Below, in pieces: positions 25,692 to 58,624 of a stretch of DNA of 64,000 nt. Position 1 is the stretch's first letter; every line of letters starts with the position of its first letter. The notes beneath the pieces are model-generated. The model ran no database searches. It was given only the letters and a program-made list of their open reading frames with translations, and was not told the DNA's origin. The translations under genes were made by a program, and so were the position numbers. This stretch comes from an uncultured Eubacteriales bacterium (GTDB lineage Bacteria > Bacillota > Clostridia > Oscillospirales > CAG-272). Where the stretch lies: the NCBI GenBank assembly GCA_905210485.1, contig CAJLXA010000003.1, forward strand, positions 6,152-70,151, in the 5' to 3' direction.

Positions 25692-25706
25692 ATCATTATG
25701 GGAGCA

Positions 25707-27473: not shown

Positions 27474-27499
27474 AAGTGATCTCCTTTATTTTGATGATG

Positions 27500-39916: not shown

Positions 39917-40306
39917 ACAAGCGATAAAGAATGATGAAAAGGAGCAAACGCTCGCAACCTGAAACCGTTCGTTCCGAATGTTTTGCATGCGAAAACGGCA
40001 AATCAAAGCGCAAAACGAAAATCGGCTCCGAACGCCTCACACTGCTGAAAGAACGCCGGGTCGAACGAAAGTATAACGAGAATGTTTCATGTGTCGGAGT
40101 CGGGGCGTATCATGGCGGCAGTTGATGTTATAGCAACAATTGCGGCGACAGTCTCCGGAGCTTAATTTATATAAGAATTTCAAAGCAACGCAGAAAACAC
40201 AGCAATATTTTTGCCGTAATACGGTCAATAATTATAAAAAAGTCAATGTGTCGCCGGCGGCAAAAACTTATTCTGTATCTTACATTGCGATTGAGGAGTG
40301 GGAAGC

Positions 40307-41347
40307 ATGGCCAAGGAAAAAATCCTGTTGAAGGAAAACGATCTGCTTATTGAAGAAAAGGACAGCGTCATGGATATCCGTGATCTGGAGATAGAAAACA
40401 ATGCCACCGTCGCCCCGGACGATTCGGAATCCTATGAAGGGGGAGACGAAGCGGCAACAGAAATGCCCGCCGTTAAAAAAGAAAGAAAAAAGCGGTGGGG
40501 GGATCGTTGCGACGGTCGGTTGCTTCGCACGTTAACGCCCTTTTCAAGGGTCATTCCATTTATTATGCCGCGCCGCTCCGACGCGCAGAATTACTTTGAA
40601 GATATTATTGATATTACCGCCATTGAAGATTACATTGCCGAAAAGCATGCCGCGGGGTATAAAAACGTCGGACTTCTTCATGTCATTATCGCGGCGTATG
40701 TACGCACGATTGCCCAGCGACCGGGCGTCAATCGTTTTGTAGCAGGGCAACGCGTCTATGCACGGAAAGGCATCACCGGCGTTATGACAATCAAGAAATA
40801 CCTGGCCGTTGATTCGCCGGATACGTCGATCAAGGTGAATTTTGATCCCTATGATACGGTTTTGGATGTCTGCCGCAAATTTACGGATACGGCGGAAAAG
40901 GCGCTTTCCGCAAATACAGACTTTGACAAAACGGCGGCAAAACTCGTGAAAATGCCGCGTTTCCTGTTCCGCGCCGCCATCAGATTCCTGATGTGGCTTG
41001 ATTACCACGGTCGTCTTCCGAAATCGCTTCTGAATGTCAGCCCTTTTCACGGCTCGTTTGTCATTACCAGTATGGGGTCGCTCGGTATTGATGCCATATA
41101 TCATCATATATATGACTTCGGCAACCTGCCGGTGTTTATTTCTTACGGTAAGAAAATCACGCGCAACGTTATTGAAAAGGACGGCACGGTTACCGCGCAT
41201 CATTACATCACGTTCCGCGTGGTTACGGACGAGCGTATATGCGACGGATATTATTACGCATCGGCGTTTAAATTGCTGAAACGATACATGCTTCATCCCG
41301 ATTGGCTTGATGTGCCGCCGCGCGAAATATTGGAAGACATTGACTGA
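40307..41347 (+). CDS. 2-oxoacid dehydrogenase E2-like (CAT-fold) acyltransferase catalytic domain, with no lipoyl domain
   Basis: An acidic N-terminus is followed by ...HVIIAAYVRTIAQRPGVNRF... and ...VVTDERICDGYYYASAF (compare the E2 DHRxxDG motif). ATG 40307 lies 9 nt after GAGGAG. Confidence 0.6.
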   Translation: MAKEKILLKENDLLIEEKDSVMDIRDLEIENNATVAPDDSESYEGGDEAATEMPAVKKERKKRWGDRCDGRLLRTLTPFSRVIPFIMPRRSDAQNYFEDIIDITAIEDYIAEKHAAGYKNVGLLHVIIAAYVRTIAQRPGVNRFVAGQRVYARKGITGVMTIKKYLAVDSPDTSIKVNFDPYDTVLDVCRKFTDTAEKALSANTDFDKTAAKLVKMPRFLFRAAIRFLMWLDYHGRLPKSLLNVSPFHGSFVITSMGSLGIDAIYHHIYDFGNLPVFISYGKKITRNVIEKDGTVTAHHYITFRVVTDERICDGYYYASAFKLLKRYMLHPDWLDVPPREILEDID

Positions 41348-43018: not shown

Positions 43019-43984
43019 TTATTGTTTGATGCCGAGGCCGGCGGCGCCGATGATGCCGGCGTCGTTGCCCAGTTCGGCAATGACGACCTTTGTTTTTTTC
43101 ACATTATTGCGGGTGTACTGTTCTTTGTCCATAATGGCGAGCAGGGGATTCAGGAGGTATTCGCGTTCGTTGCAGATGCCGCCGCCGATAGAGAGGACTT
43201 CCGGTTGGAAAATATTGATCATGTTGACAAGTCCGCAGGCAAGCAGGGCGATATATTCGTCGACAACCGCTTTTGCCGCAACGTCGCCTTGCTTCATGGC
43301 GGAAAATGCCGTGCGTGCCGTGACGTGATTGCCGTTGTCGCTGTCCGCAAGCATCAGGGTCGGAATGTCTTTGAGGCGACATTCGGTAATCTTTTCCTTT
43401 GTCATATTGGTGAGACCGGTCGCGGAGGAATACGCTTCAAAGCAACCGCGCCGTCCGCAGGAGCACTGACGACCGTTATATACGATTACGGTGTGACCGA
43501 GTTCGGCGCCCGCATGATTGAATCCGGAATAGACCTTTCCGTCGATGATGATGCCGCCGCCGACGCCGGTGCCGAGCGTAATCATGACGGAATTACGCGT
43601 TCCTTTTGCCGCGCCGACGAGTGCTTCCGCCAATGCGGCCGCGTTGGCGTCGTTTTCAATCAACACCTTTTTTACGGGAAGATACTTCTTAAAGATGTCG
43701 GCGATAGGGAAGTTCCTGAAAGGGAGGTTGTTGGCATATTCCACAACGCCGGTGTCGCAATTGGCAATGCCGGGAGTGGCGATACCGACATAAGCGACTT
43801 CGGAAAGAGGAATACCGGCTTCGTTAAGCAGTTTTTCCGTGAGAGCAGCCATGTCTTTGACGATCAGATCGCCGTCCCGGTTGGCGCCGGTGGGAACACT
43901 GCCTTTTTTTACAATCTTGAGACTTTCGTTGACAATACCGACGGCGATATTCGTGCCGCCGAGATCAACACCGATATAATACAT
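43019..43984 (-). CDS. glcK: ROK-family glucokinase
   Basis: MYYIGVDLGGTNIAVG, the GHTVIVYNGRQCSCGRRGCFEAY zinc motif, and ELGNDAGIIGAA. Confidence 0.88.
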   Translation of the reverse strand: MYYIGVDLGGTNIAVGIVNESLKIVKKGSVPTGANRDGDLIVKDMAALTEKLLNEAGIPLSEVAYVGIATPGIANCDTGVVEYANNLPFRNFPIADIFKKYLPVKKVLIENDANAAALAEALVGAAKGTRNSVMITLGTGVGGGIIIDGKVYSGFNHAGAELGHTVIVYNGRQCSCGRRGCFEAYSSATGLTNMTKEKITECRLKDIPTLMLADSDNGNHVTARTAFSAMKQGDVAAKAVVDEYIALLACGLVNMINIFQPEVLSIGGGICNEREYLLNPLLAIMDKEQYTRNNVKKTKVVIAELGNDAGIIGAAGLGIKQ

Positions 43985-44565: not shown

Positions 44566-44594
44566 TTGACAAGCAAGGCTTGCTGTGATATTAT
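44566..44594 (+). promoter_or_regulatory. Sigma-A-type promoter of the 7-gene cluster, with a palindromic spacer
   Basis: TTGACA (44566-44571), 17-nt spacer containing AGCAAG-G-CTTGCT, then TATTAT (44589-44594). It is followed by a roughly 115-nt structured leader. Confidence 0.55.
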
Positions 44595-44715: not shown

Positions 44716-47700
44716 TTGTCAATGAAAAAAGCAAAGTTCACCCGCGCGGCGGCGTTCTTACTTGCCATGATTATGGCGGTAGGTTCTCTTTTCACTCTCG
44801 CCTCCGCCTCTACGGAGTATGAGGACAACACGGGAAATACGGGTACGATCACGACACCGACGTATTCTTCCACCTCGTACGCCGCTTATCTGGCTGCACA
44901 GGCGGCGCTTCGCCGTCCGGCGCACTCCACGGCATCGGATGCCGAGATCATCAAGCAGAACAAAGGAAAGAACGAAATTTACCTTTCGCTCGGTGATTAT
45001 ACGGTCGACGCCGTTTCCACAAGAAGAGGCGTCTATCTCAACGGTATCAATGCCTCCGATCCTTCCGTAACGCTGGCGGGTTATGCTGCCGCCGTCGAGA
45101 ATCTTCCCGACGGGACAACGACGATCTATCTTCCCGAATCCGGCTCGGTTTCCTGGAAGATCAATGTGCCTGACGCAGGATTCTACGGTGTGCGTATCGA
45201 GTATTATCCTCTCGCTGTTGACGGTAAAATTTCTTCCGCCGAAAAGAAACTTCTGGTGGACGGGGAACTCCTTTTCAGCGAATGTACCTCACTTGCTTTT
45301 GACAAACTCTGGACCTATCAATACGTTTATCGGGAAAATGAAAACGGTGCTTACATTTTCGTTGCCGATGAGAACGGTACATATACCTTGTCTGTGAACG
45401 GCGCGGATGTGAAAGGCGAATATTACCTTGCCACGTTGGCGGATTCCCAGAACAAGACTTCGGCCGACGGTAAAAAATACGAGCGTGGATTTGCGCAGGA
45501 TATCAACGGGAACGATATGCGTTCGGATTGCGCGCAGAACCCCGCATGGCTTACATACACGCTTCAGGATCCGAACGGTCTTTATACCGAAGATCTTCAG
45601 ATTTATTTCAGTGCGGGCGAGCACGAACTGACGCTCGGCGGTATCCGCGAAGGATTGCTTGTCAAGTCCATCGTCCTTTTCCCGACCGAAGATCAGCTGA
45701 CGTATGCCGACTACAGCGATAAGGTGAAAGATCTTCCCGATCATTCCGGAGACGGAAGCATCATCAGGATCGAAGCGGAAAAACCCGACCTGATCTCCGA
45801 TTCTTCCGTTTATCCGACAAACGACCGCAGTTCTTCTCTCAACAGCCCGACGAATCCTTCTTCCCAGCTTCTCAACGTTATCGGTAAAGAAGGCTATTCG
45901 ACGGCAGGGCAGTGGGCTTCGTACACGTTCGCCGTGACCAAATCCGGTTACTATAATTTTGTATCCCGCTTCAAACAGACCACGCTTGAAGGTATGTTTG
46001 CGACCCGCGCTTTGAAACTCTGGTCTTCGGACGGTGAGTTCGGCCTTGTGGACGGAACCGCAACGGCGCCTTTCGCCGAGGCCAATAATATACGTTTCAA
46101 TTATGCCAACGCATGGCAGACGACAAAGTTCGGTTATTACGACGCCGATAACGCTTTCCATGAATTTACCTTCTATTTAAAGGAAGGCGTGGAATACCAC
46201 ATAGTTCTTGAGGTCAGCCTCGGCGATATGGCTACGGTTATTGATACCGTTGAAAATTCTTTGTCCGTTATCAACGATTGCTACCTTAATATATTGAAAC
46301 TCACCGGCACACAACCCGATGAATACCGTTCCTACAACTTCAACCGCGTCATGCCGAATACGGTGCGCAACCTGAAGAACCAGGCCGCCGTACTGACGGG
46401 CGTTGTTGACGAGATGAAACGTATCTGCGGCGTGTCCGGCTCCAACACCGCAACGCTGAATACCATTGCGATTCTGCTTGAGAAGATGGGCAGTGACGAA
46501 GATGAAATCGCGCCCAATCTCGGCAACCTCAAGTCTTACATCGGTAACCTCGGTACGTGGCTGAACACGGCAAAACAGCAAATGATCATGATTGACTATA
46601 TGACGGTACAGCCCACGGACGCAAAACTTCCCCGCGCCAATTCAAACTTCTTCCAGTCCGCATGGTTTGAAATCCGCGCATTTGTTTCCAGTTTCTTTAC
46701 CGATTATAACGCTATGGGCGTTACCTCGGAAATGTCCAAAGAAAACAGCATTGACGTATGGCTTGCCTACGGTCGTGACCAGTCGCAGATCTGGCGTAAC
46801 CTTATCGACGACGATTTCACTTCCGAAACCGGTATCCCTGTCACATTGAAACTGGTTACAGCCGGTACGCTTCTGCCTTCCGTTCTTTGCGGCAAAGGCC
46901 CTGACGTTTACATCGGCCTTGCGGCGGGCGACACTATCAACTATGCAATCCGCAGCGCCATCACCCCGCTCTCGCAATTTGAAGATCTGAATGATTTTGT
47001 TATCGGCCCCGACGCCGAAAATCCCCGTTTTGCCCCCTCCGCACTGGTTCCGCTTCAACTTTACGGCGAAACGTACGGTATTCCCGAAACTTCTTCCTTC
47101 TCCATGATGTTCATACGTAACGACATTCTGGAAAACCTCGGCATAGCGGTTCCCGAAACATGGGACGATCTTCTTGCCGCCGTTCCTGTTCTGCAGGCGA
47201 ACAACATGCAGATCGGTACTTCCTATGCTTCTCAGTTCAATATGTATCTCTATCAGCGCGGCGGCGGTCTGTGGCTCTATAACGGCACGGACGGCTATGC
47301 GTATGACGATGACTACGCCGGCGCACAGATCGGATACGGCACCAACACGGCGCTGGACGCTTTCGCCGATGTCTGCCGTTTGTATACCGACCTTTCTTTC
47401 CCGGTAACGTTTGACGCGGCCAACCGTTTCCGTACGGGCGAAGTTCCGCTTATGATTGCCGACTACGTGACTACTTACAACCAGTTGACGGTTTTTGCAA
47501 CCGAAATCGCCGGTATGTGGCAGTTCACGCTGATCCCCGGAACAGAGAAATCGATTTACGATGAAAACGGCGATCCTGTATATGACGTTGAGACCGGCCT
47601 GCAGAAAACCTATGTTGATCACACATCCATGACGACGGTGACGGCAACGGTTATGCTGCATAATGACAAACGCAGTGCAGAGGATACGCTCCACGCGTGG

Positions 47701-48090
47701 GAGTTCATGAAGTGGCAGGGCGGTGATAAGGCGCAGGCCACTTACGGTAACAAGATGGTTGCCCTTATCGGTCCTTCCGCCAAATATGCCAGTGCCAACA
47801 CGGTCGCTATCAGCAACCTTTCCTGGACGGCAACGGAACTTGCAAATATCAAGGCACAGCTTAACGAACTTGCCGCCATTGAAAACTACCCCGGTTCTTA
47901 TTATGTGGCCCGTTATGTACAGTTTGCCTTCTACAATGTCGTGAATGACGGCGCCGATCCTGCAGATGCTTTGCAGAGTTACATCAATACGATCAATAAA
48001 GAAATCACCCGTAAACGTCAGGAGTTTGAATTGCCGACTCTGGATATCGGTCAGACTCCCGAACAGGCCAGAAAAGCGGCCGGCAACTGA
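44716..48090 (+). CDS. Giant secreted ABC substrate-binding protein: signal peptide + two CBM-like beta-sandwich modules + helical spacer + family-1 SBP domain
   Basis: 1124 aa. Signal MSMKKAKFTRAAAFLLAMIMAVGSLFTLASAS with no Cys. CBM-like segments GSVSWKINVPDAGFYGVRIEYYPL and IRIEAEKPD...GQWASYTFAVTKSGYYNFVSRF. The C-terminal ~480 aa are SBP-like (IDVWLAYGRDQSQIWRNLIDDDF...GKGPDVYIGLAAGDT). Confidence 0.7.
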   Translation: MSMKKAKFTRAAAFLLAMIMAVGSLFTLASASTEYEDNTGNTGTITTPTYSSTSYAAYLAAQAALRRPAHSTASDAEIIKQNKGKNEIYLSLGDYTVDAVSTRRGVYLNGINASDPSVTLAGYAAAVENLPDGTTTIYLPESGSVSWKINVPDAGFYGVRIEYYPLAVDGKISSAEKKLLVDGELLFSECTSLAFDKLWTYQYVYRENENGAYIFVADENGTYTLSVNGADVKGEYYLATLADSQNKTSADGKKYERGFAQDINGNDMRSDCAQNPAWLTYTLQDPNGLYTEDLQIYFSAGEHELTLGGIREGLLVKSIVLFPTEDQLTYADYSDKVKDLPDHSGDGSIIRIEAEKPDLISDSSVYPTNDRSSSLNSPTNPSSQLLNVIGKEGYSTAGQWASYTFAVTKSGYYNFVSRFKQTTLEGMFATRALKLWSSDGEFGLVDGTATAPFAEANNIRFNYANAWQTTKFGYYDADNAFHEFTFYLKEGVEYHIVLEVSLGDMATVIDTVENSLSVINDCYLNILKLTGTQPDEYRSYNFNRVMPNTVRNLKNQAAVLTGVVDEMKRICGVSGSNTATLNTIAILLEKMGSDEDEIAPNLGNLKSYIGNLGTWLNTAKQQMIMIDYMTVQPTDAKLPRANSNFFQSAWFEIRAFVSSFFTDYNAMGVTSEMSKENSIDVWLAYGRDQSQIWRNLIDDDFTSETGIPVTLKLVTAGTLLPSVLCGKGPDVYIGLAAGDTINYAIRSAITPLSQFEDLNDFVIGPDAENPRFAPSALVPLQLYGETYGIPETSSFSMMFIRNDILENLGIAVPETWDDLLAAVPVLQANNMQIGTSYASQFNMYLYQRGGGLWLYNGTDGYAYDDDYAGAQIGYGTNTALDAFADVCRLYTDLSFPVTFDAANRFRTGEVPLMIADYVTTYNQLTVFATEIAGMWQFTLIPGTEKSIYDENGDPVYDVETGLQKTYVDHTSMTTVTATVMLHNDKRSAEDTLHAWEFMKWQGGDKAQATYGNKMVALIGPSAKYASANTVAISNLSWTATELANIKAQLNELAAIENYPGSYYVARYVQFAFYNVVNDGADPADALQSYINTINKEITRKRQEFELPTLDIGQTPEQARKAAGN

Positions 48091-48131: not shown

Positions 48132-49079
48132 ATGCCACAAATAAATGAGACAAAGCGCCCGGTATCCCGCAAGGATATGACGAGAGCGCAGTGGACATGG
48201 AAAGAAATAAAGAACAACAAAGTCGCGTATCTGATGGTGGCGCCGTTCTTTATTCTCTTCGTTGTCTTCACTGTATTCCCGGTTATTTTGTCTATGTTCC
48301 TGAGCCTTACGGAATTCAACCTTTTGGAAATGCCGAAATGGGTTGGTCTGCAGAACTATATCCGGCTCTTCCTTGACGACGATATTTTTATCATTGCATG
48401 TAAAAACACACTGATCTTCGCGGCGATCACGGGACCCGTTTCCTACATCATGTCGTTTCTCGTCGCATGGTTCATTAACGAACTTCCTCCCAAGATCCGT
48501 GCGGTTGTTACGCTGGTCTTCTACGCACCGTCCATTTCCGGCTCGGTGTATATGGTTTGGAAGATTCTGTTCTCCAGTGACTCTTACGGCTGGGTCAACG
48601 GTCTTCTTATTAAGTATAACATTATTGACAGCCCAATCCTGTGGTTTGAAAATGCCAGTTACGTTATGCCGCTCTGTATTGTGGTGGCATTGTGGACATC
48701 GCTCGGTACGGCGTTCCTGTCTTTTATCGCCGGTCTTCAGACCGTGGACAGAAGCCTTTACGAAGCGGCGGCCGTGGACGGTATCAAAAACCGTTGGCAG
48801 GAAGTGTGGTACATAACGCTTCCGAAGATGCGTCCGCAGTTGATGTTCGGTGCCGTTCTTTCCATTACAAACGCGTTTGGTTTCGGTGCGGTTGTTACGG
48901 CGCTTGCCGGTTTCCCGTCCGTCGACTATGCGGCATGGACGATCATGCACCATCTTGACGACTACGGCGGACAACGTTACGAAGTCGGCTATGCTTCGGC
49001 AATCGCCGTATTCCTGTTCGTAATCATGATCGGCAGTAACATACTGATCAAGAAGATACTTTCAAAGGTGGGACAATAA
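48132..49079 (+). CDS. ABC sugar-type permease (MalF/LplB-like), pair 1
   Basis: 315 aa with 6 TM segments. EAA loop SLYEAAAVDGIKNRWQEVWYITLP. Confidence 0.88.
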   Translation: MPQINETKRPVSRKDMTRAQWTWKEIKNNKVAYLMVAPFFILFVVFTVFPVILSMFLSLTEFNLLEMPKWVGLQNYIRLFLDDDIFIIACKNTLIFAAITGPVSYIMSFLVAWFINELPPKIRAVVTLVFYAPSISGSVYMVWKILFSSDSYGWVNGLLIKYNIIDSPILWFENASYVMPLCIVVALWTSLGTAFLSFIAGLQTVDRSLYEAAAVDGIKNRWQEVWYITLPKMRPQLMFGAVLSITNAFGFGAVVTALAGFPSVDYAAWTIMHHLDDYGGQRYEVGYASAIAVFLFVIMIGSNILIKKILSKVGQ

Positions 49080-49080
49080 T

Positions 49081-49968
49081 ATGGCGAGACAAAAATTGCA
49101 GAAATTAAGAACCCGCAATCATCGCGTTGTCCTTAACCGTTCCTACGGCGGCGACGCCGGCATTACGTTTTTCCTCGTCATCATGGGCGCTTTCATGTTC
49201 CTGCCGATGCTTTACCTCATTCTGCAGTCGCTGAAGCCTCTTGATGAACTCTGGATTTTTCCGCCGAGATTCTATGTTGTGAATCCGACGCTCCAGAATT
49301 TCGCCGACCTGTTCTCCCTTATGAACGACTCGTGGGTACCGTTTTCGCGTTACATATTCAACACCGTTTTCATTACGGTGTGCGGTACTTTCGGCAACCT
49401 GATCATCGGATCGCTCGGCGCTTATGCGTTGGCAAAGATGAAATTCCCGGGACGTCAGTTCATCTTCCAGATTATCGTGCTTTCGCTGATGTTCCATCAG
49501 ACGGTAAACCAGGTGGCGCACTTCATTATCCTCGGCGCGCTCGGTTGGGTCGACACCTATCTTGCCATCATCGTTCCGGCCCTGGCAACGACGATGGGCG
49601 TTTACCTGATGAAGCAGTTTATGGAATCTTCGGTTTCCGACGCGGTTCTCGAAAGCGCGCGTCTTGACGGCGCAAGCGAATTCCGGATCTTCCTTACCAT
49701 CGCCATGCCGATGGTAAAGCCGGCCTGGCTGACGCTGATCATCGAATCGTTCCGCGGCCTTTGGAACACCGGCGCTTCGATTTACATTCATTCGGAACAG
49801 TTGAAAACTTTCAACTATGCCATTACGCAGATCGTTGCCGGCGGTATTGCCCGTACCGGTGCGTCGGCGGCCGCTTCCGTGGTCATGATGCTCGTTCCGA
49901 TTACCGTATTTGTTATTAACCAGAGTAAAGTCATCGAAACGATGGGTACTTCGGGTATGAAAGATTAA
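49081..49968 (+). CDS. ABC sugar-type permease (MalG/LplC-like), pair 1
   Basis: 295 aa with 6 TM segments. EAA loop AVLESARLDGASEFRIFLTIAMP. It starts 1 nt after the preceding stop. Confidence 0.88.
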   Translation: MARQKLQKLRTRNHRVVLNRSYGGDAGITFFLVIMGAFMFLPMLYLILQSLKPLDELWIFPPRFYVVNPTLQNFADLFSLMNDSWVPFSRYIFNTVFITVCGTFGNLIIGSLGAYALAKMKFPGRQFIFQIIVLSLMFHQTVNQVAHFIILGALGWVDTYLAIIVPALATTMGVYLMKQFMESSVSDAVLESARLDGASEFRIFLTIAMPMVKPAWLTLIIESFRGLWNTGASIYIHSEQLKTFNYAITQIVAGGIARTGASAAASVVMMLVPITVFVINQSKVIETMGTSGMKD

Positions 49969-49984: not shown

Positions 49985-52171
49985 ATGAAAAAGAAAATTT
50001 CCGCATTGTTGCTTTTTCTCCTTTGTGCGGTGATGCTTTTCGGAACGGTATCTTCCGTTGCCGTAGAGCCTTACCAGACATACACGTATTCCATCGACGG
50101 CAAGGCTCTGTATTCTCCGGCGGCGTATACGCCCGCTATGACGGTTGATTACAAGTATATGGGACTTGCCAACAACTTTCAGTCGGTTGACGATCTTTTC
50201 GTAGGTCCGGATAACCGAGTATATCTTGTTGATGCCGGTGCCAGCTCCGTTTACGTGCTGTCTCCCTATTATCAAATTGAGAAGAAATCCGACGGCAAAG
50301 ATTTTGTGCTGAATACGTTTTATAACGGGACTTCGCAGGATAAACTCAACAGTCCTAAAGGCGTCTTTGTCAACGACGAATGTATTTATGTATGCGACAC
50401 CGAAAATTACCGCATTGTTGTGTTTGATCTTGACGGTAATTTCCTGCGCATCATTCCTCGTCCGCAGTCCTCGCTTTTCGGAACCGATTCCACGTATAAA
50501 CCCGTTGCTATGGCTGTTGACCAGTACGGACGTCTTTTCGTGATTTCCTCAACAACCTATCAGGGCGTCATTGTTATGACCGAAGACGGAACATTTACCG
50601 GCTTTATCGGCGCTCAATCGGTTACATACTCCATTGTGGATATTATCTGGCGCCGTTTCCAGACAAAGGAACAGCGCGAGAATTCGGTGCAGTATGTTTC
50701 TACCGAATATAATAACATCACGATCGACGACGACGGATTCATCTACGTTACGATTCAACAGCAGGATCTTGAAAAACAGCAGGCTTCTCTGGAAGCGAAA
50801 GACTATGAGTATGCCCCTGTCAAAAAACTGAACTCCTCCGGCTCCGAGATCATGAAGCGTAACGGTTTCTTCGGACCGGGCGGTGACGTTGACGTGCAGA
50901 ATTCCACGACCGAAAGCGGCGTACCTACAGGTCCGTCCATTATTGAGGACGTGGCTATCGGCCCGGAACAAACCTATTCGATCATTGATACCAAGCGTAA
51001 TAAGATTTTTACGTATGACCAGAACGGCAACCTGCTCTTCGCGTTCGGCGACAGCGGTATTCAGCTCGGCAATACGGCAAAACTGAATGCCATCACCTAT
51101 CAGAAATACGGTGACGCAGGAAAAGACGGAACGGTTAAGCATAAACTTCTGACGCTGGACAGTTCGACAAAAATGATTACGGTCTTCACATGTACGGAAT
51201 ACGGCAATCTTCTTTATTCCGCACTGAATTATGAAAACAATCGTGATTATGTCAATTCGGTCATAGCGTGGAAGAGCGTTCTTGCCCGCAACAATAACTT
51301 TGACGCGGCGTATATCGGCGTCGGTAAGGCTTATTACCGTGAGGGCGAGTACGAGCAGGCTATGGAATATTTCAAAGCCGCTTACGATACCGAAAACTAT
51401 TCCAATGCGTACTCCGAAGTACGTAAAGAGTGGGTTTCCAAGTACCTTATCGTGATTCCGATTGTGGTCATCGTTGTGTTGTTCGCGCTTCTGAAACTGG
51501 GGGCTTATGCAAACAAAGTCAATGTGGCCACAGCGACGAAAGGCGGCAAACGCACTTTCAAAGAGGAACTTCTGTATTCTTTCCATCTGAAGTACCACCC
51601 GTTTGACGGCTACTGGGATCTGAAACATGAAAAACGCGGCTCGGTTCGCGCGGCGTTGGTGATCCTCGTTGTGACGATCCTGTGCTTCTACTATCAATCG
51701 GTCGGCACCGGCTATCTTCTGAATCCGGAGGGAACCTATTCCACAATCTGGGTACAGCTCATTGCCGTAATAATCCCGCTTTTGTTGTGGGTCGTCGCCA
51801 ACTGGTGTCTTACCACATTGTTCGACGGTGAGGGTTCGCTGAAGGACGTATTTGTCGCTTCGTGCTACAGTCTGGCGCCTCTTCCGCTTCTTCTCATCCT
51901 CTCGACGGCATTGTCCAACATCGTTACGAGCGCTGAAGCGCAGATCGTGCAGTTCCTGATTGTCCTCGGCTATATCTGGGTGGGATTCCTCCTGTTCTTC
52001 GGTACCATGGTGACGCACGACTATTCGCTCGGTAAAAACTTCATTACCGTCATCGGAACGATTGTCGGTATGTGTATTATTATGTTCGTAGCCGTTCTGT
52101 TCTCAAGCCTTCTCGGAAAGATGATATCTTTCGTGTCCAACATCATCGTTGAAATCAACTATCGTCTATAA
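49985..52171 (+). CDS. Signal peptide + six-bladed NHL-repeat propeller + TPR + Yip1-family membrane domain fusion
   Basis: 728 aa. NHL blades are visible (LNSPKGVFVNDECIYVCDTENYRIVVFDLDGNF; YGRLFVISSTTYQGVIVMTEDGTF; IIDTKRNKIFTYDQNGNLLFAFG). A TPR-like segment follows (GVGKAYYREGEYEQAMEYFKAAYD), then a TM segment, then HPFDGYWDLKHEKRGS and 5 TM segments (Yip1-like). Confidence 0.65.
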   Translation: MKKKISALLLFLLCAVMLFGTVSSVAVEPYQTYTYSIDGKALYSPAAYTPAMTVDYKYMGLANNFQSVDDLFVGPDNRVYLVDAGASSVYVLSPYYQIEKKSDGKDFVLNTFYNGTSQDKLNSPKGVFVNDECIYVCDTENYRIVVFDLDGNFLRIIPRPQSSLFGTDSTYKPVAMAVDQYGRLFVISSTTYQGVIVMTEDGTFTGFIGAQSVTYSIVDIIWRRFQTKEQRENSVQYVSTEYNNITIDDDGFIYVTIQQQDLEKQQASLEAKDYEYAPVKKLNSSGSEIMKRNGFFGPGGDVDVQNSTTESGVPTGPSIIEDVAIGPEQTYSIIDTKRNKIFTYDQNGNLLFAFGDSGIQLGNTAKLNAITYQKYGDAGKDGTVKHKLLTLDSSTKMITVFTCTEYGNLLYSALNYENNRDYVNSVIAWKSVLARNNNFDAAYIGVGKAYYREGEYEQAMEYFKAAYDTENYSNAYSEVRKEWVSKYLIVIPIVVIVVLFALLKLGAYANKVNVATATKGGKRTFKEELLYSFHLKYHPFDGYWDLKHEKRGSVRAALVILVVTILCFYYQSVGTGYLLNPEGTYSTIWVQLIAVIIPLLLWVVANWCLTTLFDGEGSLKDVFVASCYSLAPLPLLLILSTALSNIVTSAEAQIVQFLIVLGYIWVGFLLFFGTMVTHDYSLGKNFITVIGTIVGMCIIMFVAVLFSSLLGKMISFVSNIIVEINYRL

Positions 52172-52196
52172 CGGTAAACGCATAGGAGTGAATAAA

Positions 52197-55100
52197 ATGA
52201 AAATGAAAAATATATTGTCTATGCTTCTTGCCGTCGTCATGGTGTTTGCTTGCGTAAGCGGACTTTTCGGTACCGTTTCCGTGAAAGCGGCCGATGATAC
52301 GGACGATGGCGAAGAAGATCTGAAGCCTTATGAAGTGGCGGCGGCCGCGGCATTGCAAAATGCCTATACGTCGATCAGCGAGAAAGTTCGCCGCGAAAAT
52401 ACTGCCGGATATACCCGCCTTGTGGCAACATCCGCGGACGGCAGTTATGAGCTTCACGCCAATGTGTACACCGGTGAAGTGTACTATAAAAACACAAAAA
52501 CCGGTCAGTTCCTGTCCACAAACCCGGCTTCGCTTTCCAGTGTGGCAACAGCGCAGAAGCCGTTGGCTTTGTCACAGCTCAGCGTCAAGTATATGGATCT
52601 CACCGGCACTACCGCTACTATGGTCAGTTTTACGGAGGCGGCACAGCGCGGTCAGGTTACCATCAAACAGATTCGTAACGGTATACGCGTCGAATATACC
52701 ATCGGCCGTACCGATACGAACTATCTGTTGCCCGGCTGGATTACCGAGGACCGTTTTGAATCCCTGATTCTGACGCCTATCTGCAACTACATTCTTCAGA
52801 TCATTTCCGACGAAGCATATGAAGATGTAGATATTGAAGTTCTTCAGAACAAATATGCGGAGTATGTAGCCGAGTATGAAGAAAATCCCAAATTGCACGC
52901 GGAAAGCTATGCCGATCAGTACGCATTGCTTTCTGTGGGTGACGAATACGGCGTGGATCTTACCGATTCCACGTACTCCAAAGCCGCCAATATCGCGTAC
53001 TTCCAGTACATGAGAATCCGCGCAACGTATGCGTTGCAGGATCCGAATGACCTGGCGGACGGCAGCGACGCAAAGATCGAGCTTCTTGCCAAGTATAAAA
53101 TCTGCTCGCAGGTCGATAAGGATACGGGTAAGTTTTATGTGATTTATACGGTTGACGACACGTTGCCCGATAAATCGAAAAAACTTTACGAATCGTATAT
53201 CAAAACCTACTGTGCCGAAACGTATACGTACGACGACAAGGCGTACGATACCGAAGAAACTGGTTATGTTTCAACGGACGAGGCGCCGGCGTTCTTCCGT
53301 ATGGCATTGGAATATTCCATTGCCGATGACGGAACGCTTTCGGTTCGCCTGCCCGCGAACAGTATCCGCTATGACAGCACGAACTTCACCCTTCTCAGCG
53401 TGGACGTTCTGCCGTTCTTCGGAGCCGGTAATGTCAATGACGAGGGATATGCTTTCTATCCGGACGGAAGCGGCGCGCTCCTTGAGTTTTCCGACCTCCG
53501 TTCTCAGGTGTCTGCCGGTTCGCTGACAAACCGTGTATACGGCGAAGATTATGTTTACTACAAAATTTCCGCCAAACACCAGGAATCCATTCGTATGCCT
53601 GTGTACGGTATTGTCGATACGTCGAAGAGAACGACGCAGATTACCGAACTGGACTATGACCGCGTCACCGGCGAAATTATTGAGACAAAGAAAGATATTG
53701 TCACTTCCGAAACGACAGGATTTGTCGCTTATCTTACGGAAGGCGAAGCACTTGCCTCGCTGACAGTGGCTTTCGGCGGTTCGAGCGCACATAACTATAC
53801 GTCGATCTATCCGACGTATACACCGACGCCAACCGACTCTTATAAACTCGTCGACGCTATCTCGGTCAGCACGGACGCGACCGAATGGACAGTGGCATCC
53901 AAGAAAAAATATACCGATAATTTCACGATCCAGATCCAGATGCTGAGTGATACGGCGAAAGCCACCGAAGCCGGAATCACGAATTATTACGAAGCTTCGT
54001 GGATCGGCATGGCTCAGGCTTATCGTGACTTTATATGGAAAGGGAAGAATTCGTTTACTTCCGCCGATGTCTCGGACTCTCTGCCTTTGTACATCGAATC
54101 GTTCGGTACGGTAAAGGCGACCGACAAAATCCTGTCGATTCCTGTCACCGTCGACAAAGCGCTGACCACGTTTGACGATGTTATCACCATGTATAAGGAA
54201 CTTTCCGCATATAAAACCGATTGTGAAGCCAAAGCGGCCGAATATGTGCAAAAAGCCGCGGCCGCACGCAACGAAAACAATATCATATTGGCGGAAGAAT
54301 ATGAAAAGACGGCAGCGGAGTACGCCGAAAAAGCCGCCGCATCTTCCGATATGTCCAATATCAAGTTCAAGTTGACTGGTTTTGCAAACGGCGGTATGAC
54401 CGCTACATATCCGAACAAGGTAAAATGGATGAAGTCCGTAGGCGGCGCTCGCGGCTTTGAAAAACTGCTCAACTATGCCGCAAACGATACAAACGGCAAA
54501 CTCGGCATTTATCCCGAATTTGAATTTTCGTATGTAGCGAACAAAAAGTCTTTTGACGGCATTTCGCTGAAAGCGGACGCCGCACGTTCGGTCGACAACC
54601 GCTATGCAAGCCAGGCTGTGTATGACTGTGTGTATCAGACATTCACGACCTACTTCCATGTGCTGATGTCTCCCGACGCCATCGCCAAGCATTACGCGAA
54701 ATTCACGAAATCCTATAGCAAGAATAAAGGTGTGACCGGTATTTCGGCTTCCTCGCTCGGCAGCGACCTCAACTCTTCGTTCTCGGAAGACAATCCGCAG
54801 AACCGTGAAGACTCCAAGTCGATTCTGTCCGACGTACTGGCCGATATGAAAGAAGAATACGGTTCGGTCATGATTTCCGGCGGCAATGCTTATACATTGA
54901 AATTCGCCGATCATATCATTGACATTCCGCTTGACAGTTCCAACTACAAGTACTCGTCGAGGACAATACCGTTCATCGGTATGGTGCTTCACGGCTACGT
55001 GAACTATGCGGGCGGCGCTACCAACGAAGCAGGCGACAGTAAGTATCAGCTTCTGCGCTCGATCGAAAACGGCGCGTCTCTCTATTACATTCTTTCGTAT

Positions 55101-56537
55101 GCCAATACCACGATTCTGAAAGACGACCTTCTTCTTAACACGTACTATTCCATTCGTTACGATATCTGGGTCGACGACCTTGCCCGTCAGTATCACACGC
55201 TGAACAGTGCCATCGGTTCGCTTCAGACGTATCTCATTCAAAACGAGATTTCCGTTATTGCGGAACGTATTCCCGACAGCGCGGAACTTACCCGGTACCG
55301 CAAACTCCTGACTGACAATGCGGTTCTGGCATTGCAGACGGCCATTACCGACGCAAGAGACAATGCATACCGTGACATGCGCTTCCAGAACACCATGAAG
55401 GTTCTTTTTGAAAACAAGGATCTGATCGGTAATGCACAGAATCTGTACGCTGAAAAACTGGCGGCTGCCAAACTGCTGTATGACGCCATCAACGACGAAA
55501 CGCTGGACAGTGAAAACGGCGGAACGTGGAAACAACTTCGCGACGATGTAGCCGCATATCAGAGCGCGGTGGACGAAGCCGGCGATAATGCAACAGCCGA
55601 GCAACTGTTACGGCTTGAAGCCGCTAAACTGCGTCTCTCCTACAACATTGATCTTGCTACTCAGGCATATAGCGCCTACAATACCGATACGGCAAACGGC
55701 GTTTACAATGAAGAGTTGCTGATCGGTGCGGCAGAAGAAATCGTAACGTCTTCGTGGGGAACTCTTTCCGATTCGGAAAAAGCGCTCCTCAAGAATATGT
55801 ACGACGTCTATAAGGCGGGCGGCACATGGGCGAACCAGATCGGCAAAACGGTGACGGTTTCCGTCGACCGCAATGCGGTTCTGAACAGCGTGAAGGCCGC
55901 TTATGACGCACAGACCAAATATTTCACCGAGGCCGCTCTTCTTGATTTCCACACGGCATTGGCCGGTGCGATTGATGAAGCCATCGCGAGCTATTATGCC
56001 GAATTCGTAAACGCTTATATCGAAACCCTGACGTATACGTCGCAGAACGGTCAACCGGTTTATGAAACGTTGACGACATATGAATATGCCGCGCTTCGCG
56101 ACGCTCTTGTACGTTTCTATGTGGCGAAGACCGAAGAAGCAACGCAGGCAAATGTCGAAGCGTTTGTTAAGAACTTCCTGAATAATGCCAACGGCAACAG
56201 CGAAGAACTGACAAATGTTCAGAAGTCGATTATCCGTGATACAATCGCATATCTTACCGGCGCAGGTTTTGCCGGCGATAAAGTGGTGGATCTTACCGCC
56301 ATCGAAGTAACGCCGGACATCATCTTCACCGAAGAAGACGCGACCGACGCCGAATATGTCGGCACACCGTATACCGTGAATGACGATTCGGTAGTGATGG
56401 TGATCTACGAAAGCGCCGATAAAACGCAGCGCAAAGGATTTATCCTGAACTATAACGTATTTGATGTGACGGTTCGTTATAACGGTACGGTCTACACTAT
56501 TTCGTCCTACGGTTTTGCAACCGTGAATCTTGATTAA
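52197..56537 (+). CDS. 1446-aa N-terminally anchored extracytoplasmic protein, DUF5696-like (uncharacterised)
   Basis: AGGAGTG lies upstream of ATG 52197. Signal/anchor MKMKNILSMLLAVVMVFACVSGLFGTVSVKA. I recognise no characterised catalytic motif. Conserved-looking blocks are GYAFYPDGSGALLEF, LTGFANGGM, IYPEFEF and IPFIGMVLHGYVNYAGG. The DUF5696 label comes from memory of similar neighbourhoods and is not verified. Confidence 0.5.
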   Translation: MKMKNILSMLLAVVMVFACVSGLFGTVSVKAADDTDDGEEDLKPYEVAAAAALQNAYTSISEKVRRENTAGYTRLVATSADGSYELHANVYTGEVYYKNTKTGQFLSTNPASLSSVATAQKPLALSQLSVKYMDLTGTTATMVSFTEAAQRGQVTIKQIRNGIRVEYTIGRTDTNYLLPGWITEDRFESLILTPICNYILQIISDEAYEDVDIEVLQNKYAEYVAEYEENPKLHAESYADQYALLSVGDEYGVDLTDSTYSKAANIAYFQYMRIRATYALQDPNDLADGSDAKIELLAKYKICSQVDKDTGKFYVIYTVDDTLPDKSKKLYESYIKTYCAETYTYDDKAYDTEETGYVSTDEAPAFFRMALEYSIADDGTLSVRLPANSIRYDSTNFTLLSVDVLPFFGAGNVNDEGYAFYPDGSGALLEFSDLRSQVSAGSLTNRVYGEDYVYYKISAKHQESIRMPVYGIVDTSKRTTQITELDYDRVTGEIIETKKDIVTSETTGFVAYLTEGEALASLTVAFGGSSAHNYTSIYPTYTPTPTDSYKLVDAISVSTDATEWTVASKKKYTDNFTIQIQMLSDTAKATEAGITNYYEASWIGMAQAYRDFIWKGKNSFTSADVSDSLPLYIESFGTVKATDKILSIPVTVDKALTTFDDVITMYKELSAYKTDCEAKAAEYVQKAAAARNENNIILAEEYEKTAAEYAEKAAASSDMSNIKFKLTGFANGGMTATYPNKVKWMKSVGGARGFEKLLNYAANDTNGKLGIYPEFEFSYVANKKSFDGISLKADAARSVDNRYASQAVYDCVYQTFTTYFHVLMSPDAIAKHYAKFTKSYSKNKGVTGISASSLGSDLNSSFSEDNPQNREDSKSILSDVLADMKEEYGSVMISGGNAYTLKFADHIIDIPLDSSNYKYSSRTIPFIGMVLHGYVNYAGGATNEAGDSKYQLLRSIENGASLYYILSYANTTILKDDLLLNTYYSIRYDIWVDDLARQYHTLNSAIGSLQTYLIQNEISVIAERIPDSAELTRYRKLLTDNAVLALQTAITDARDNAYRDMRFQNTMKVLFENKDLIGNAQNLYAEKLAAAKLLYDAINDETLDSENGGTWKQLRDDVAAYQSAVDEAGDNATAEQLLRLEAAKLRLSYNIDLATQAYSAYNTDTANGVYNEELLIGAAEEIVTSSWGTLSDSEKALLKNMYDVYKAGGTWANQIGKTVTVSVDRNAVLNSVKAAYDAQTKYFTEAALLDFHTALAGAIDEAIASYYAEFVNAYIETLTYTSQNGQPVYETLTTYEYAALRDALVRFYVAKTEEATQANVEAFVKNFLNNANGNSEELTNVQKSIIRDTIAYLTGAGFAGDKVVDLTAIEVTPDIIFTEEDATDAEYVGTPYTVNDDSVVMVIYESADKTQRKGFILNYNVFDVTVRYNGTVYTISSYGFATVNLD

Positions 56538-56553
56538 AGGAGGGAACTGAATA

Positions 56554-57522
56554 ATGAAAAATACAACTATGGCTATTCCTTCCGTCAAGAAGCATAAGAA
56601 GGCCTCGCTCGACGCGCGCAAAGCGCGCGCGGGCTGGTTCTTCGTCCTGCCTTTCGTAATCGGTCTTGTTCTGATTTATCTGCCGATCGTTATCGACTCG
56701 ATCTGGTTCAGTTTTAACACAATCAAACCGATTCCGGTGCGTGAAGGCGGCGGTTATCAGCTGGTTTTTGAAGGTTGGAACTTCTATCGCTCCGCTTTGG
56801 TCGGCGATATGTCCACAACGTATCTGCAAAAACTTCTTTCCGGTATTCAGCAACTGGTTCTGGATGTTCCCGCGATCGTCATTTTCTCTCTCTTCATCGC
56901 GGTTATTCTGAATCAGAAGATGGTCGGACGCGCCGCATTCCGCGCAATCTTCTTCATACCGGTTATTATCGCTACCGGCCTTATGGAAACGATCAATGCC
57001 GCGGATACGCTGGCATCTTCCATGGAGAACGGTACGTCGATGGGTGAAGAGACCAGTGCGACAACGCAGATCATCTCCACAATGGACGTGGAACGCTTGT
57101 TTGAAAACATGAAAGTCGGTAAAGAACTGGTTATATACATCACGAACCTTGTTAACAGTATTTATAATATCGTTAACCGTTCGGGCGTACAGATGCTGAT
57201 CTTCCTTGCCGGTCTTCAGTCCATTTCCCCCGCGATTTACGAAGCCTGTGAAATTGAAGGCGCGACCGCATGGGAAACTTTCTGGAAGATTACTTTCCCG
57301 ATGATAAGTCCGATGATACTTGTCAACGCTATTTACACGATTATCGACTCTTTCACAACCAACACGAACGTTGTTATGTCGTACATTTCCTCTGAAGTAT
57401 ACAACAGCAGTCAGGGTGTGGCGACAGCAATGTCATGGATATACTTCGTTGTCATAATGGCCATTATCGGTCTTGTGACGCTGATATGTTCCAGTTTCGT
57501 GTTCTACCAGAAACGTAATTAA
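56554..57522 (+). CDS. ABC sugar-type permease (MalF-like), pair 2
   Basis: 322 aa. EAA loop IYEACEIEGATAWETFWKITFP. An extracytoplasmic insert is present (NAADTLASSMENGTSMGEETSATTQ...). Confidence 0.85.
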   Translation: MKNTTMAIPSVKKHKKASLDARKARAGWFFVLPFVIGLVLIYLPIVIDSIWFSFNTIKPIPVREGGGYQLVFEGWNFYRSALVGDMSTTYLQKLLSGIQQLVLDVPAIVIFSLFIAVILNQKMVGRAAFRAIFFIPVIIATGLMETINAADTLASSMENGTSMGEETSATTQIISTMDVERLFENMKVGKELVIYITNLVNSIYNIVNRSGVQMLIFLAGLQSISPAIYEACEIEGATAWETFWKITFPMISPMILVNAIYTIIDSFTTNTNVVMSYISSEVYNSSQGVATAMSWIYFVVIMAIIGLVTLICSSFVFYQKRN

Positions 57523-57535
57523 GGAGGCGGAAAAG

Positions 57536-58624
57536 ATGGATGCACAAAAAATGAAAGCTCCGAAAAAAGTCTATAATAAAGACGGCTACATCGTTTCCTT
57601 TGAAGATAAGGTTCCGTTCTGGGAAAGACTGAAGGGAAAAGTATTCTCCACATACTTCCTTACCAACGTTGTCTGGTACATTTTCCGTCTTGTACTGATG
57701 ATCGGTATTTCTTTCGTGATTCTGTACCCGTTTATCTCCAAGATCGCGGGTTCGTTCATGGCTCCCGAAGATTTCAAAGACGCGACGGTCAATATCATTC
57801 CGAAGCACTTCACGATCGGTACGTATAAGGCTATCTTCCTTGAGAATCATTATATGTCCGCCTTTGTCAACACTTTGCTTCTGTCGTTACTCTGCGCATT
57901 GCTGCAAACGTTTATTTGCTGTCTTGTCGGGTACGGCCTTGCCAAGTTCAAATTCAAAGGTAACAAACTGATTCTTCTCATGGTCGTTCTGACCATGATT
58001 ATCCCGCACGGAACGCTCCGCCTTTCCATGTTCCTGCATTTTGAATATTTCAACCCCGGCAGTATTTCCGGCTGGAATGTTCCCGGTATCCTGACGCCGT
58101 TTATCTGGTTTATCAATCTCTTCCGTTCGACACCGTTGACGGGCGTGTCTCTGACGGATACCTATTGGCCGCTGATTCTTCTTTCGCTGTTCGGTCTCGG
58201 CTTCAAGAACGGTCTTTACATCTTCATGATGCGGCAGTTCTTCCATGGCGTGCCCGATGAACTTGAGGAATCTGCGTACGTGGACGGTTCCACGACGATG
58301 CGTACGTTTTTCCAGATCATCATTCCGCTTTCGATACCGATGATGATCACGATCTTCCTGTTCGCGTTTTCGTGGCAGTGGACGGATAACTTCTACACGG
58401 AACTGTTCTTCATTTCGGGCAGTGACATCATTCTGATGCCTGACCTTTTGGAATCGGTTCCGCCGACCCTGTTGGCAAACAAACCGTTTACCGACTGGTC
58501 GCTGTATGAAACGGCCATTCGCAATACGTGCGGTCTTATGATCATTCTGCCGCTTGTCATTCTCTATCTCTTCTGCCAGAAGTACCTGGTGCAGGGTATT
58601 GAACGCAGCGGTATCGTAGGCTGA
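57536..58624 (+). CDS. ABC sugar-type permease (MalG-like), pair 2
   Basis: 362 aa. EAA loop LEESAYVDGSTTMRTFFQIIIP. It has a 50-aa cytoplasmic N-terminal extension. Confidence 0.85.
   Translation: MDAQKMKAPKKVYNKDGYIVSFEDKVPFWERLKGKVFSTYFLTNVVWYIFRLVLMIGISFVILYPFISKIAGSFMAPEDFKDATVNIIPKHFTIGTYKAIFLENHYMSAFVNTLLLSLLCALLQTFICCLVGYGLAKFKFKGNKLILLMVVLTMIIPHGTLRLSMFLHFEYFNPGSISGWNVPGILTPFIWFINLFRSTPLTGVSLTDTYWPLILLSLFGLGFKNGLYIFMMRQFFHGVPDELEESAYVDGSTTMRTFFQIIIPLSIPMMITIFLFAFSWQWTDNFYTELFFISGSDIILMPDLLESVPPTLLANKPFTDWSLYETAIRNTCGLMIILPLVILYLFCQKYLVQGIERSGIVG

Follow-up and report, generated by a model that had tools for sequence, protein, structure and literature searches.

Is the longest protein encoded in a 64,000-nucleotide (nt) stretch of DNA from an uncultured Eubacteriales bacterium (GenBank assembly GCA_905210485.1; contig CAJLXA010000003.1, positions 6,152 to 70,151; here referred to as the window) an enzyme of a new family, a member of a known one, or no enzyme at all? 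A first-pass annotation made from the letters alone took this protein (1,446 amino acids [aa]; positions 52197 to 56537, forward strand) for a candidate founder of a new family of polymer-active enzymes. We found that it is an exported member of the GH129 glycosidase superfamily, that its gene has a fixed place in a double ATP-binding cassette (ABC) sugar-uptake cassette, and that it belongs to a branch lacking both of the carboxylates that stand at GH129-like positions in other branches. A role in holding sugar for the transporter is more likely for it than that of a new enzyme.

Family membership and relationship to GH129

The protein matched the Pfam family DUF5696 (PF18952) with 394.3 bits (E, 1.3e-117; aa ~381 to 1016), exceeding the gathering score of 25.6 bits, and had no match in NCBIfam. 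A word-indexed search returned more than 1,300 relatives, and PF18952 was present in all 120 of the matches listed; the few named relatives among these were all labelled "hypothetical protein," and the closest ones beyond the protein's own 90% cluster were 56 to 64% identical. A profile search of 1.84 billion representatives yielded 5,512 clusters (50% identity) at E values of ≤1e-3 and 3,074 at ≤1e-30. Relatives occur in the genomes of at least 576 species; nearly all of the best 80 belong to uncultured Clostridia from gut, rumen, or faeces. Literature searches for "DUF5696" and "PF18952" found no paper, and a search for "GH129-like" found only the paper on the enzyme DagB. Given that the family is already in Pfam and comprises thousands of clusters, the protein is a member of a catalogued but unstudied family and not its founder.

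To what, then, is the family related? An AlphaFold2 model of aa 32 to 1030 (60 sequences; predicted local distance difference test score [pLDDT], 87.7; predicted template modelling score, 0.79) consists of a beta and then helical region (aa 32 to 365; positions 52290 to 53291), a beta-sandwich (aa ~366 to 590; 53292 to 53966), and eight beta/alpha units (aa ~600 to 1010; 53994 to 55226). In a Foldseek search against the PDB, the best matches were to the GH129-like enzyme DagB (5opq and 8rzk; E, 5e-18 to 8e-17), with an alignment over nearly the whole model, and the GH129 enzyme NagBb matched at 2.5e-14. Next came GH31 YihQ (7e-10), GH36 (4e-8), and GH66 (2e-5), matches to these groups lying between about 1e-10 and 1e-4. 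The first-pass impression of a TIM-barrel glycosidase was thus right at the level of the fold.

Sequence searches of the PDB with the window protein and with the profile of its clade gave chance matches only (beta-trefoil designs and interferon gamma), and the window protein had no Pfam GH129 match. More distant relatives were sampled by scanning metagenome contigs for the spacing P925-F926...H932...G939...N943...L953...E957-x-G959. DUF5696 proteins were found at 106 of the 120 loci obtained, with scores against the clade profile that fall from 1,300 to about 40 bits. When 31 of the distant members were made into a profile, it matched by sequence both DagB (E, 8.4e-11) and NagBb (E, 1.4e-5). 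These alignments span the N-terminal strands, the barrel-entry helix "DYVDMAK" (counterpart in the window protein, WIGMAQAYRD), and barrel units 1 and 2, and extend weakly into the C-terminal domain, where the small beta domain of the family aligns with the immunoglobulin-like domain of DagB. The homology is therefore transitive through the family (i.e., seen with the distant-member profile and not with the window protein or the clade profile). Because this profile matches both enzymes by sequence, DUF5696 is a true but very divergent GH129 relative; it is a very large branch of the GH129 glycosidase superfamily. A protein that had been matched to no nameable family thus has a confident link to a characterized one, which by the first-pass annotation's own standard would make it known rather than novel.

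The gene consists of one open frame of 1,446 codons plus a stop and, as had been claimed, is the longest open reading frame (ORF) in the window. The ATG at 52197 was preferred over an in-frame TTG at 52149 because AGGAG (52184 to 52188) lies 8 nt 5' of it. The sole hydrophobic segment of the protein is formed by aa 1 to 31 (52197 to 52289), a Sec signal peptide or signal anchor. The junction VKA/AD looks like a signal-peptidase I site, and the homologue consensus has an Ala-Ala end near residue 30 and no Cys; alternatively, the segment may be an uncleaved anchor. A lipoprotein reading, prompted by a weak lipobox seen earlier at VFAC, was rejected with L-[AS]-[GA]-C and a conserved Cys as the criterion: VFAC has Phe at -2, and Cys19 is not conserved among the homologues.

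Conservation extends beyond the limits of the Pfam model on both sides. The region of aa 32 to 365 is conserved in the family (S126, G170, and P179), and its first strands align by sequence with the DagB N terminus. A second AlphaFold2 model (aa 1001 to 1446; pLDDT, 91) has strands just after the barrel and at the extreme C terminus, with a bundle of long helices between them (aa 1028 to 1360; 55278 to 56276); further strands are predicted at aa 1012 to 1024, 1219 to 1223, and 1362 to 1366. The helical part is ~330 aa long and not the last ~550 aa, as first described; the barrel extends to about aa 1010. The small C-terminal beta domain (aa 1399 to 1446; 56391 to 56534) has conserved Y1404, N1418, and N1420. 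On the basis of the models, we read this domain as the probable counterpart of the GH129 C-terminal domain and the helices as a putative insertion. E957 and the C-terminal motif are separated by 99 to 1,559 aa in different family members (median, 265; ~460 in the window protein), and the domains on both flanks are conserved. An Ala/Glu-rich helical hairpin after barrel helix 1 (aa 672 to 716; 54210 to 54344) is likewise variable, being occupied in ~15% of the aligned homologues on average. Foldseek found nothing in the PDB better than an E value of 0.03 for the C-terminal and helical region, and a Pfam scan of homologues of up to 2,545 aa gave no further domains hinting at a substrate or an anchor.

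Conserved residues and the putative catalytic positions

Does the window protein retain the residues expected of a GH129 enzyme? We used three sets of sequences, namely, an alignment of 261 proteins of the window branch, the same branch enlarged by 16 metagenomic members (277 clade sequences), and a sample of 78 distant members. Ten residues are invariant in the 261 branch proteins (P422, D423, G424, G426, D547, R870, N897, H932, N943, and E957), and six more are nearly so (D451, E634, D/E774, D800, N859, and K975). The most conserved acids of the beta-sandwich are D423 (in YPDGSG), D451 (in YGxDY), and D547, while conserved positions of the barrel are E634, N731, E774, R870, N897, Y899, H932, N943, and E957. 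D/E423, G424, G426, D451, R870, N897, and Y899 are still conserved in the distant sample; H932, N943, and E957 were fixed by the search pattern there, so that their constancy in this sample is uninformative. The blocks that had been picked out by eye as looking conserved are all present (GYAFYPDGSGALLEFSD, aa 417 to 433; LPLYIESFGT, 629 to 638; KFKLTGFANGGM, 722 to 733; GIYPEFEF, 770 to 777; ASSLGSDLN, 851 to 859; and IPFIGMVLHGYVNYAGGATNE, 924 to 944), and their conservation is genuine.

The catalytic pairs of the characterized enzymes are D435-E478 in NagBb (43 residues apart) and D486-E531 in DagB (45 residues apart) (PMC5698469). In the AlphaFold2 model, barrel strand 4 is I849-S850, and the strand with its loop (GISASSLGSDLNSSFSEDNPQNRED; aa 848 to 872; 54738 to 54812) includes S853, D857, and the invariant R870. 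In distant members, strand 4 reads [SA]-[FL]-R-D, and column 853 is D/E in 48 of 78; the alignment around this column has no gaps and is anchored by G848, G855, L858, and R870. Column 898 is D/E in 29 of these 78 (24 of them with D/E853); D/E911 also co-occurs with D/E853 in 24, and acids at 853, 898, and 911 are found together in 21. The distance from 853 to 898 (45 residues) matches the GH129 catalytic spacing of 43 to 45. Judged by flanking alignment anchors, D486 falls at profile positions 636 to 670 and D435 at 642 to 654, and column 853 is at ~653. These alignments are consistent with column 853 being the position of the GH129 nucleophile. A profile of the second half of the barrel, built from acid-bearing members, had no GH129 match in the PDB, and thus no residue-by-residue alignment of the nucleophile was obtained.

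The window branch has lost these acids. Column 853 is Thr in 209 and Ser in 46 of the 261 proteins (T/S in 255), and an acid occurs in none of the 277 clade sequences. At column 898 the branch has Ala, Ile, Val, or Ser, and at column 911, Pro, Ala, or Ser; acids at 853 and 898 are also missing from the 16 metagenomic members, two of which have D/E at 911. In the window protein itself, the residues are S853, A898, and P911, i.e., neither an Asp at the end of strand 4 nor a carboxylate 43 to 45 residues later is present. Given the absence of the carboxylates at 853 and 898, we infer that the window protein is no longer a canonical retaining glycosidase.

A tree built without columns 853, 898, and 911 and rooted at its midpoint has acid-bearing members on either side of the root and requires at least 3 to 5 changes. 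The window protein lies within a 17-member clade (Shimodaira-Hasegawa-like approximate likelihood ratio test, 100) from which the acid is absent throughout. A second clade (including the loci L100, L105, L128, L132, L167, and L186) represents an independent loss at 853 (N, S, or T), and the otherwise conserved N897 is changed in most of its members, being F or H at all six of these loci. At one of them (L100), a gene for a GH130 mannooligosaccharide phosphorylase comes next.

The importer cassette and the proposed function

What does a glycosidase relative without these acids work with? Its gene is the fifth of seven genes on the same strand, separated by gaps of 1 to 41 nt. These encode, in order, a giant binding protein (44716 to 48090; 1,124 aa), a first pair of CUT1-type ABC permeases (48132 to 49968; 315 and 295 aa), a membrane protein with NHL-propeller, TPR, and Yip1 parts (49985 to 52171; 728 aa), the DUF5696 protein, and a second permease pair (56554 to 58624; 322 and 362 aa). 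The binding protein has a family-1 sugar-binding fold in its last ~420 aa (aa ~680 to 1100; best PDB match, Lin1841; E, 8e-8). Its N-terminal ~640 aa have no Pfam match, its initial hydrophobic segment contains no Cys, and its annotated TTG start may really be an ATG two codons on (MKKAKF). A promoter-like site of near-consensus sequence (TTGACA-17-TATTAT, with TG; 44566 to 44594, forward strand) precedes the binding-protein gene, and the forward strand up to 58624 showed no terminator-like site of more than 8 stem pairs. A divergent gene for a ROK-family sugar kinase (43019 to 43984, reverse strand) adjoins the cassette. No gene for an ATPase, a regulator, or a glycosidase was seen in the cassette or among the other scanned ORFs of the window, which are housekeeping genes apart from that kinase. 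Importers served by a shared ATPase of the MsmX/MsmK type usually have no ATPase gene of their own. The description of the DUF5696 protein as the only plausible enzyme of the cluster thus stands in that its gene is the sole enzyme-like one, while catalysis itself is doubtful because the clade lacks the Asp pair seen in other branches.

Each cassette gene was present at 66 to 81 of 82 related loci. At these loci, permeases of about 80% identity accompany DUF5696 proteins of about 40%. Across related species, the permeases are ~60 to 85% identical and the DUF5696 and giant binding proteins ~38 to 48%; by these identities, the membrane core of the cassette appears to be far more tightly constrained than its surface parts. 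The 145 flanking genes of these loci are housekeeping genes (MnmA, AlaRS, ROK, and others), and their 25 most frequent families do not include a glycosidase; the ROK gene is a neighbor at 12 of the 82 loci, and the MnmA and AlaRS genes are the other frequent neighbors. Distant metagenomic members keep the gene order down to ~170 bits, with or without acids at column 853. Since the cassette is kept in both cases, the common task of the family is probably independent of those carboxylates. The flanks of distant cassettes include extra binding proteins and genes for GH43 (4), GH10 (3), GH130 (2), one GH36-like protein, and one GH78 protein. Given these varied glycan genes, we regard the cassette as a general platform, and the varied neighbors fit a general accessory role better than that of one substrate-specific enzyme. 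In many distant cassettes (L097, L100, L103, L105, L110, L189, L202, L203, and others), the NHL/TPR (~500 aa) and Yip1 (~220 aa) parts are encoded by separate adjacent genes.

On balance, we give about even chances to a reading of the window protein as a noncanonical, probably noncatalytic, glycan-binding subunit of the importer. The protein would be exported, bearing a signal peptide or anchored, as an extracytoplasmic part of the CUT1-type cassette. A conserved polar pocket (D423, D451, R870, N897, Y899, and N943), retained after the loss of the acids, would bind or position a glycan captured by the giant binding protein, near both permease pairs and the NHL-Yip1 protein, and the variable helical bundle would serve as a spacer. 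Binding in place of cleavage, like any contact with the neighboring proteins, is our interpretation of the residue pattern and gene order.

Several observations weigh against this reading and point instead to an active extracellular glycosidase or transglycosylase of an unclassified GH family, which would use noncanonical residues to trim the bound polymer into importable oligosaccharides. We consider such an enzyme possible, though distinctly less probable. Column 853 is equated with the GH129 nucleophile on the basis of strand position, spacing, and alignment offsets and not of a superposition. An acid at 857 or 861, in the loop of strand 4, is kept in 252 of the 261 clade members (96.6%), and both are missing in 9 members versus ~20 expected under independence; given this retention, a displaced nucleophile is possible, which in the window protein, where D857 is the sole acid among positions 853, 857, and 861, may be D857, shifted by one helical turn. 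Several other acids are invariant or nearly so (D423, D451, D547, E634, D/E774, and E957), polar residues are densely invariant around the C-terminal face of the barrel, and relocated catalytic residues might be sought, as tentatively as the enzyme itself, among D423 and D451 of the sandwich and E634, E774, and E871/D872 of the barrel. Catalytic residues can move in this superfamily, because an essential Asp of DagB comes from its N-terminal domain, and the acid/base residue of NagBb is not conserved in DagB (PMC5698469); the invariant Asp residues of the beta-sandwich are in keeping with such a move. The fold and the sequence homology are those of real exo-alpha-glycosidases, the operon of this clade encodes no further enzyme and lies among housekeeping genes, the binding protein has its large extra N-terminal region, and a sugar kinase gene adjoins. 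Set against an enzyme are the absence of an acid at 853 from all 277 clade sequences, the loss of 898 and 911 as well, and the survival of the cassette through two independent acid losses. Position 857 is Asp in only 68% of the clade (Ala in 31 members and Tyr in 10), and distant cassettes bring glycosidases of their own for xylan and mannan, beta-linked polymers that an alpha-glycosidase fold is not expected to cut. We also considered D857 as a canonical nucleophile, GSDLN resembling the D-x-N motifs of GH31 and GH36, and rejected it on account of its frequency in the clade and its lack of conservation in distant members.

A mainly structural envelope protein, in which the head would be docked to the NHL-Yip1 protein or to the permeases, the helical bundle would be a wall spacer or stalk, and the old pocket would recognize a wall polymer or a partner protein, is improbable in our view. 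The helical insertions that vary the distance between conserved flanking domains so widely, and the homologues of up to 2,545 aa that gain no further Pfam domains, would suit a stalk; the invariant H932 and E957 appear in the model at the N-terminal ends of strands 7 and 8, i.e., on the bottom face of the barrel, and the operon has housekeeping flanks and no regulator. However, the gene is always inside a sugar-type ABC cassette with a sugar-binding protein, family members of ~860 aa that lack the stalk still keep the cassette, and nothing ties the protein to genes of wall synthesis. A bolder extension of the glycan-binding reading, which we hold to be rather unlikely, is that the DUF5696 protein, the NHL-TPR-Yip1 protein, the giant tethered binding protein, and the two permease pairs form one Gram-positive machine for glycan capture and import, in which a GH129-derived protein repeatedly gave up catalysis to become a glycan clamp or gate. 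Such a machine, if it exists, would correspond in function to the Sus-type surface machinery of Bacteroidota.

Although its GH129-type fold and homology tie it to a known superfamily, no paper that we found describes the family itself, its pattern of residues, or its constant position in a transporter cassette. With its thousands of clusters, DUF5696 is one of the larger glycosidase-fold families without an assigned function; it always travels with a double ABC sugar importer, and the branch of the window protein is found in hundreds of uncultured Clostridia from the gut and rumen. As an enzyme, the protein would define a new CAZy family located where uptake takes place. As a pseudo-enzyme, which the residue pattern suggests it to be, it would be a new kind of transporter accessory, and the acid-bearing and acid-less branches would form a natural series for the change from glycosidase to binding protein. 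Either outcome would alter the prediction of carbohydrate use from gut metagenomes, in which the genes currently bear the label "hypothetical."

Two observations concern other parts of the window. Overlapping ORFs of 593 and 588 aa lie on opposite strands at 25698 to 27479 (forward) and 25707 to 27473 (reverse), the forward one without a Pfam match at E values of ≤1e-5. For the ORF at 40298 to 41347, the 2-oxoacid dehydrogenase acyltransferase domain was matched only weakly, in its C-terminal part (E, 1.8e-6), with no lipoyl domain in the same scan.

Comparison with known systems

The cassette permeases and binding protein match the CUT1 sugar importers of Firmicutes (MalEFG/UgpABE type; Lin1841 binding protein). 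Known CUT1 importers have one permease pair and neither a DUF5696 nor an NHL-Yip1 partner, whereas the two pairs of this cassette enclose both partners, with a constant gene order.

Among characterized glycosidases, GH31 sulfoquinovosidase YihQ, GH36, and GH66 share the architecture of a beta-sandwich plus barrel with the window protein. Alignment of the clade with Escherichia coli YihQ alone and with a 50-sequence YihQ alignment by hhalign gave probabilities of 0.1 to 0.2%, unusable for residue mapping, and the GH31 Pfam model PF01055 had no match at E values of up to 0.1. The GH31 nucleophile motif is WMADFGE in YihQ and of the WIDMNE type in other GH31 enzymes; both this motif and the WxGD acid/base motif are absent from the window protein.

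For NagBb, the CAZy GH129 alpha-N-acetylgalactosaminidase of Bifidobacterium bifidum (PDB 5WZN), the DUF5696 subfamily profile aligns with residues 220 to 360 (at the E value of 1.4e-5 given above). The spacing of the NagBb catalytic pair (43) is close to that of D853 and D898 in distant members (45); Ser and Ala occupy these positions in the window protein. NagBb is an exo-enzyme of the cytoplasmic type and has a Ca2+ site (PMC8106489).

The nearest structural match is DagB (ZgGH129; ZGAL_3152; PDB 5OPQ and 8RZK), a GH129-like alpha-1,3-(3,6-anhydro)-D-galactosidase. Its order of domains (N-terminal beta-sandwich, TIM barrel, and C-terminal immunoglobulin-like domain) (PMC5698469) is common to the window protein, and S853 sits within the range expected for D486 of DagB. 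The two proteins are ~9% identical in the structural alignment, the profile of the window clade has no sequence match to DagB, and the window protein has ~330 additional N-terminal residues, the helical hairpin, and the 330-aa helical bundle. DagB is a soluble periplasmic enzyme from a carrageenan locus of Bacteroidota, whereas the window protein is encoded in an ABC cassette of Clostridia.

As a working model for the window protein, we propose the GH18 chitinase-like lectins. These are catalytically inactive binding proteins with a glycosidase fold, in which the TIM barrel and the sugar pocket were kept after the loss of the catalytic acid. They differ from the window protein in belonging to an unrelated family and another kingdom and in being soluble proteins encoded outside transporter operons.

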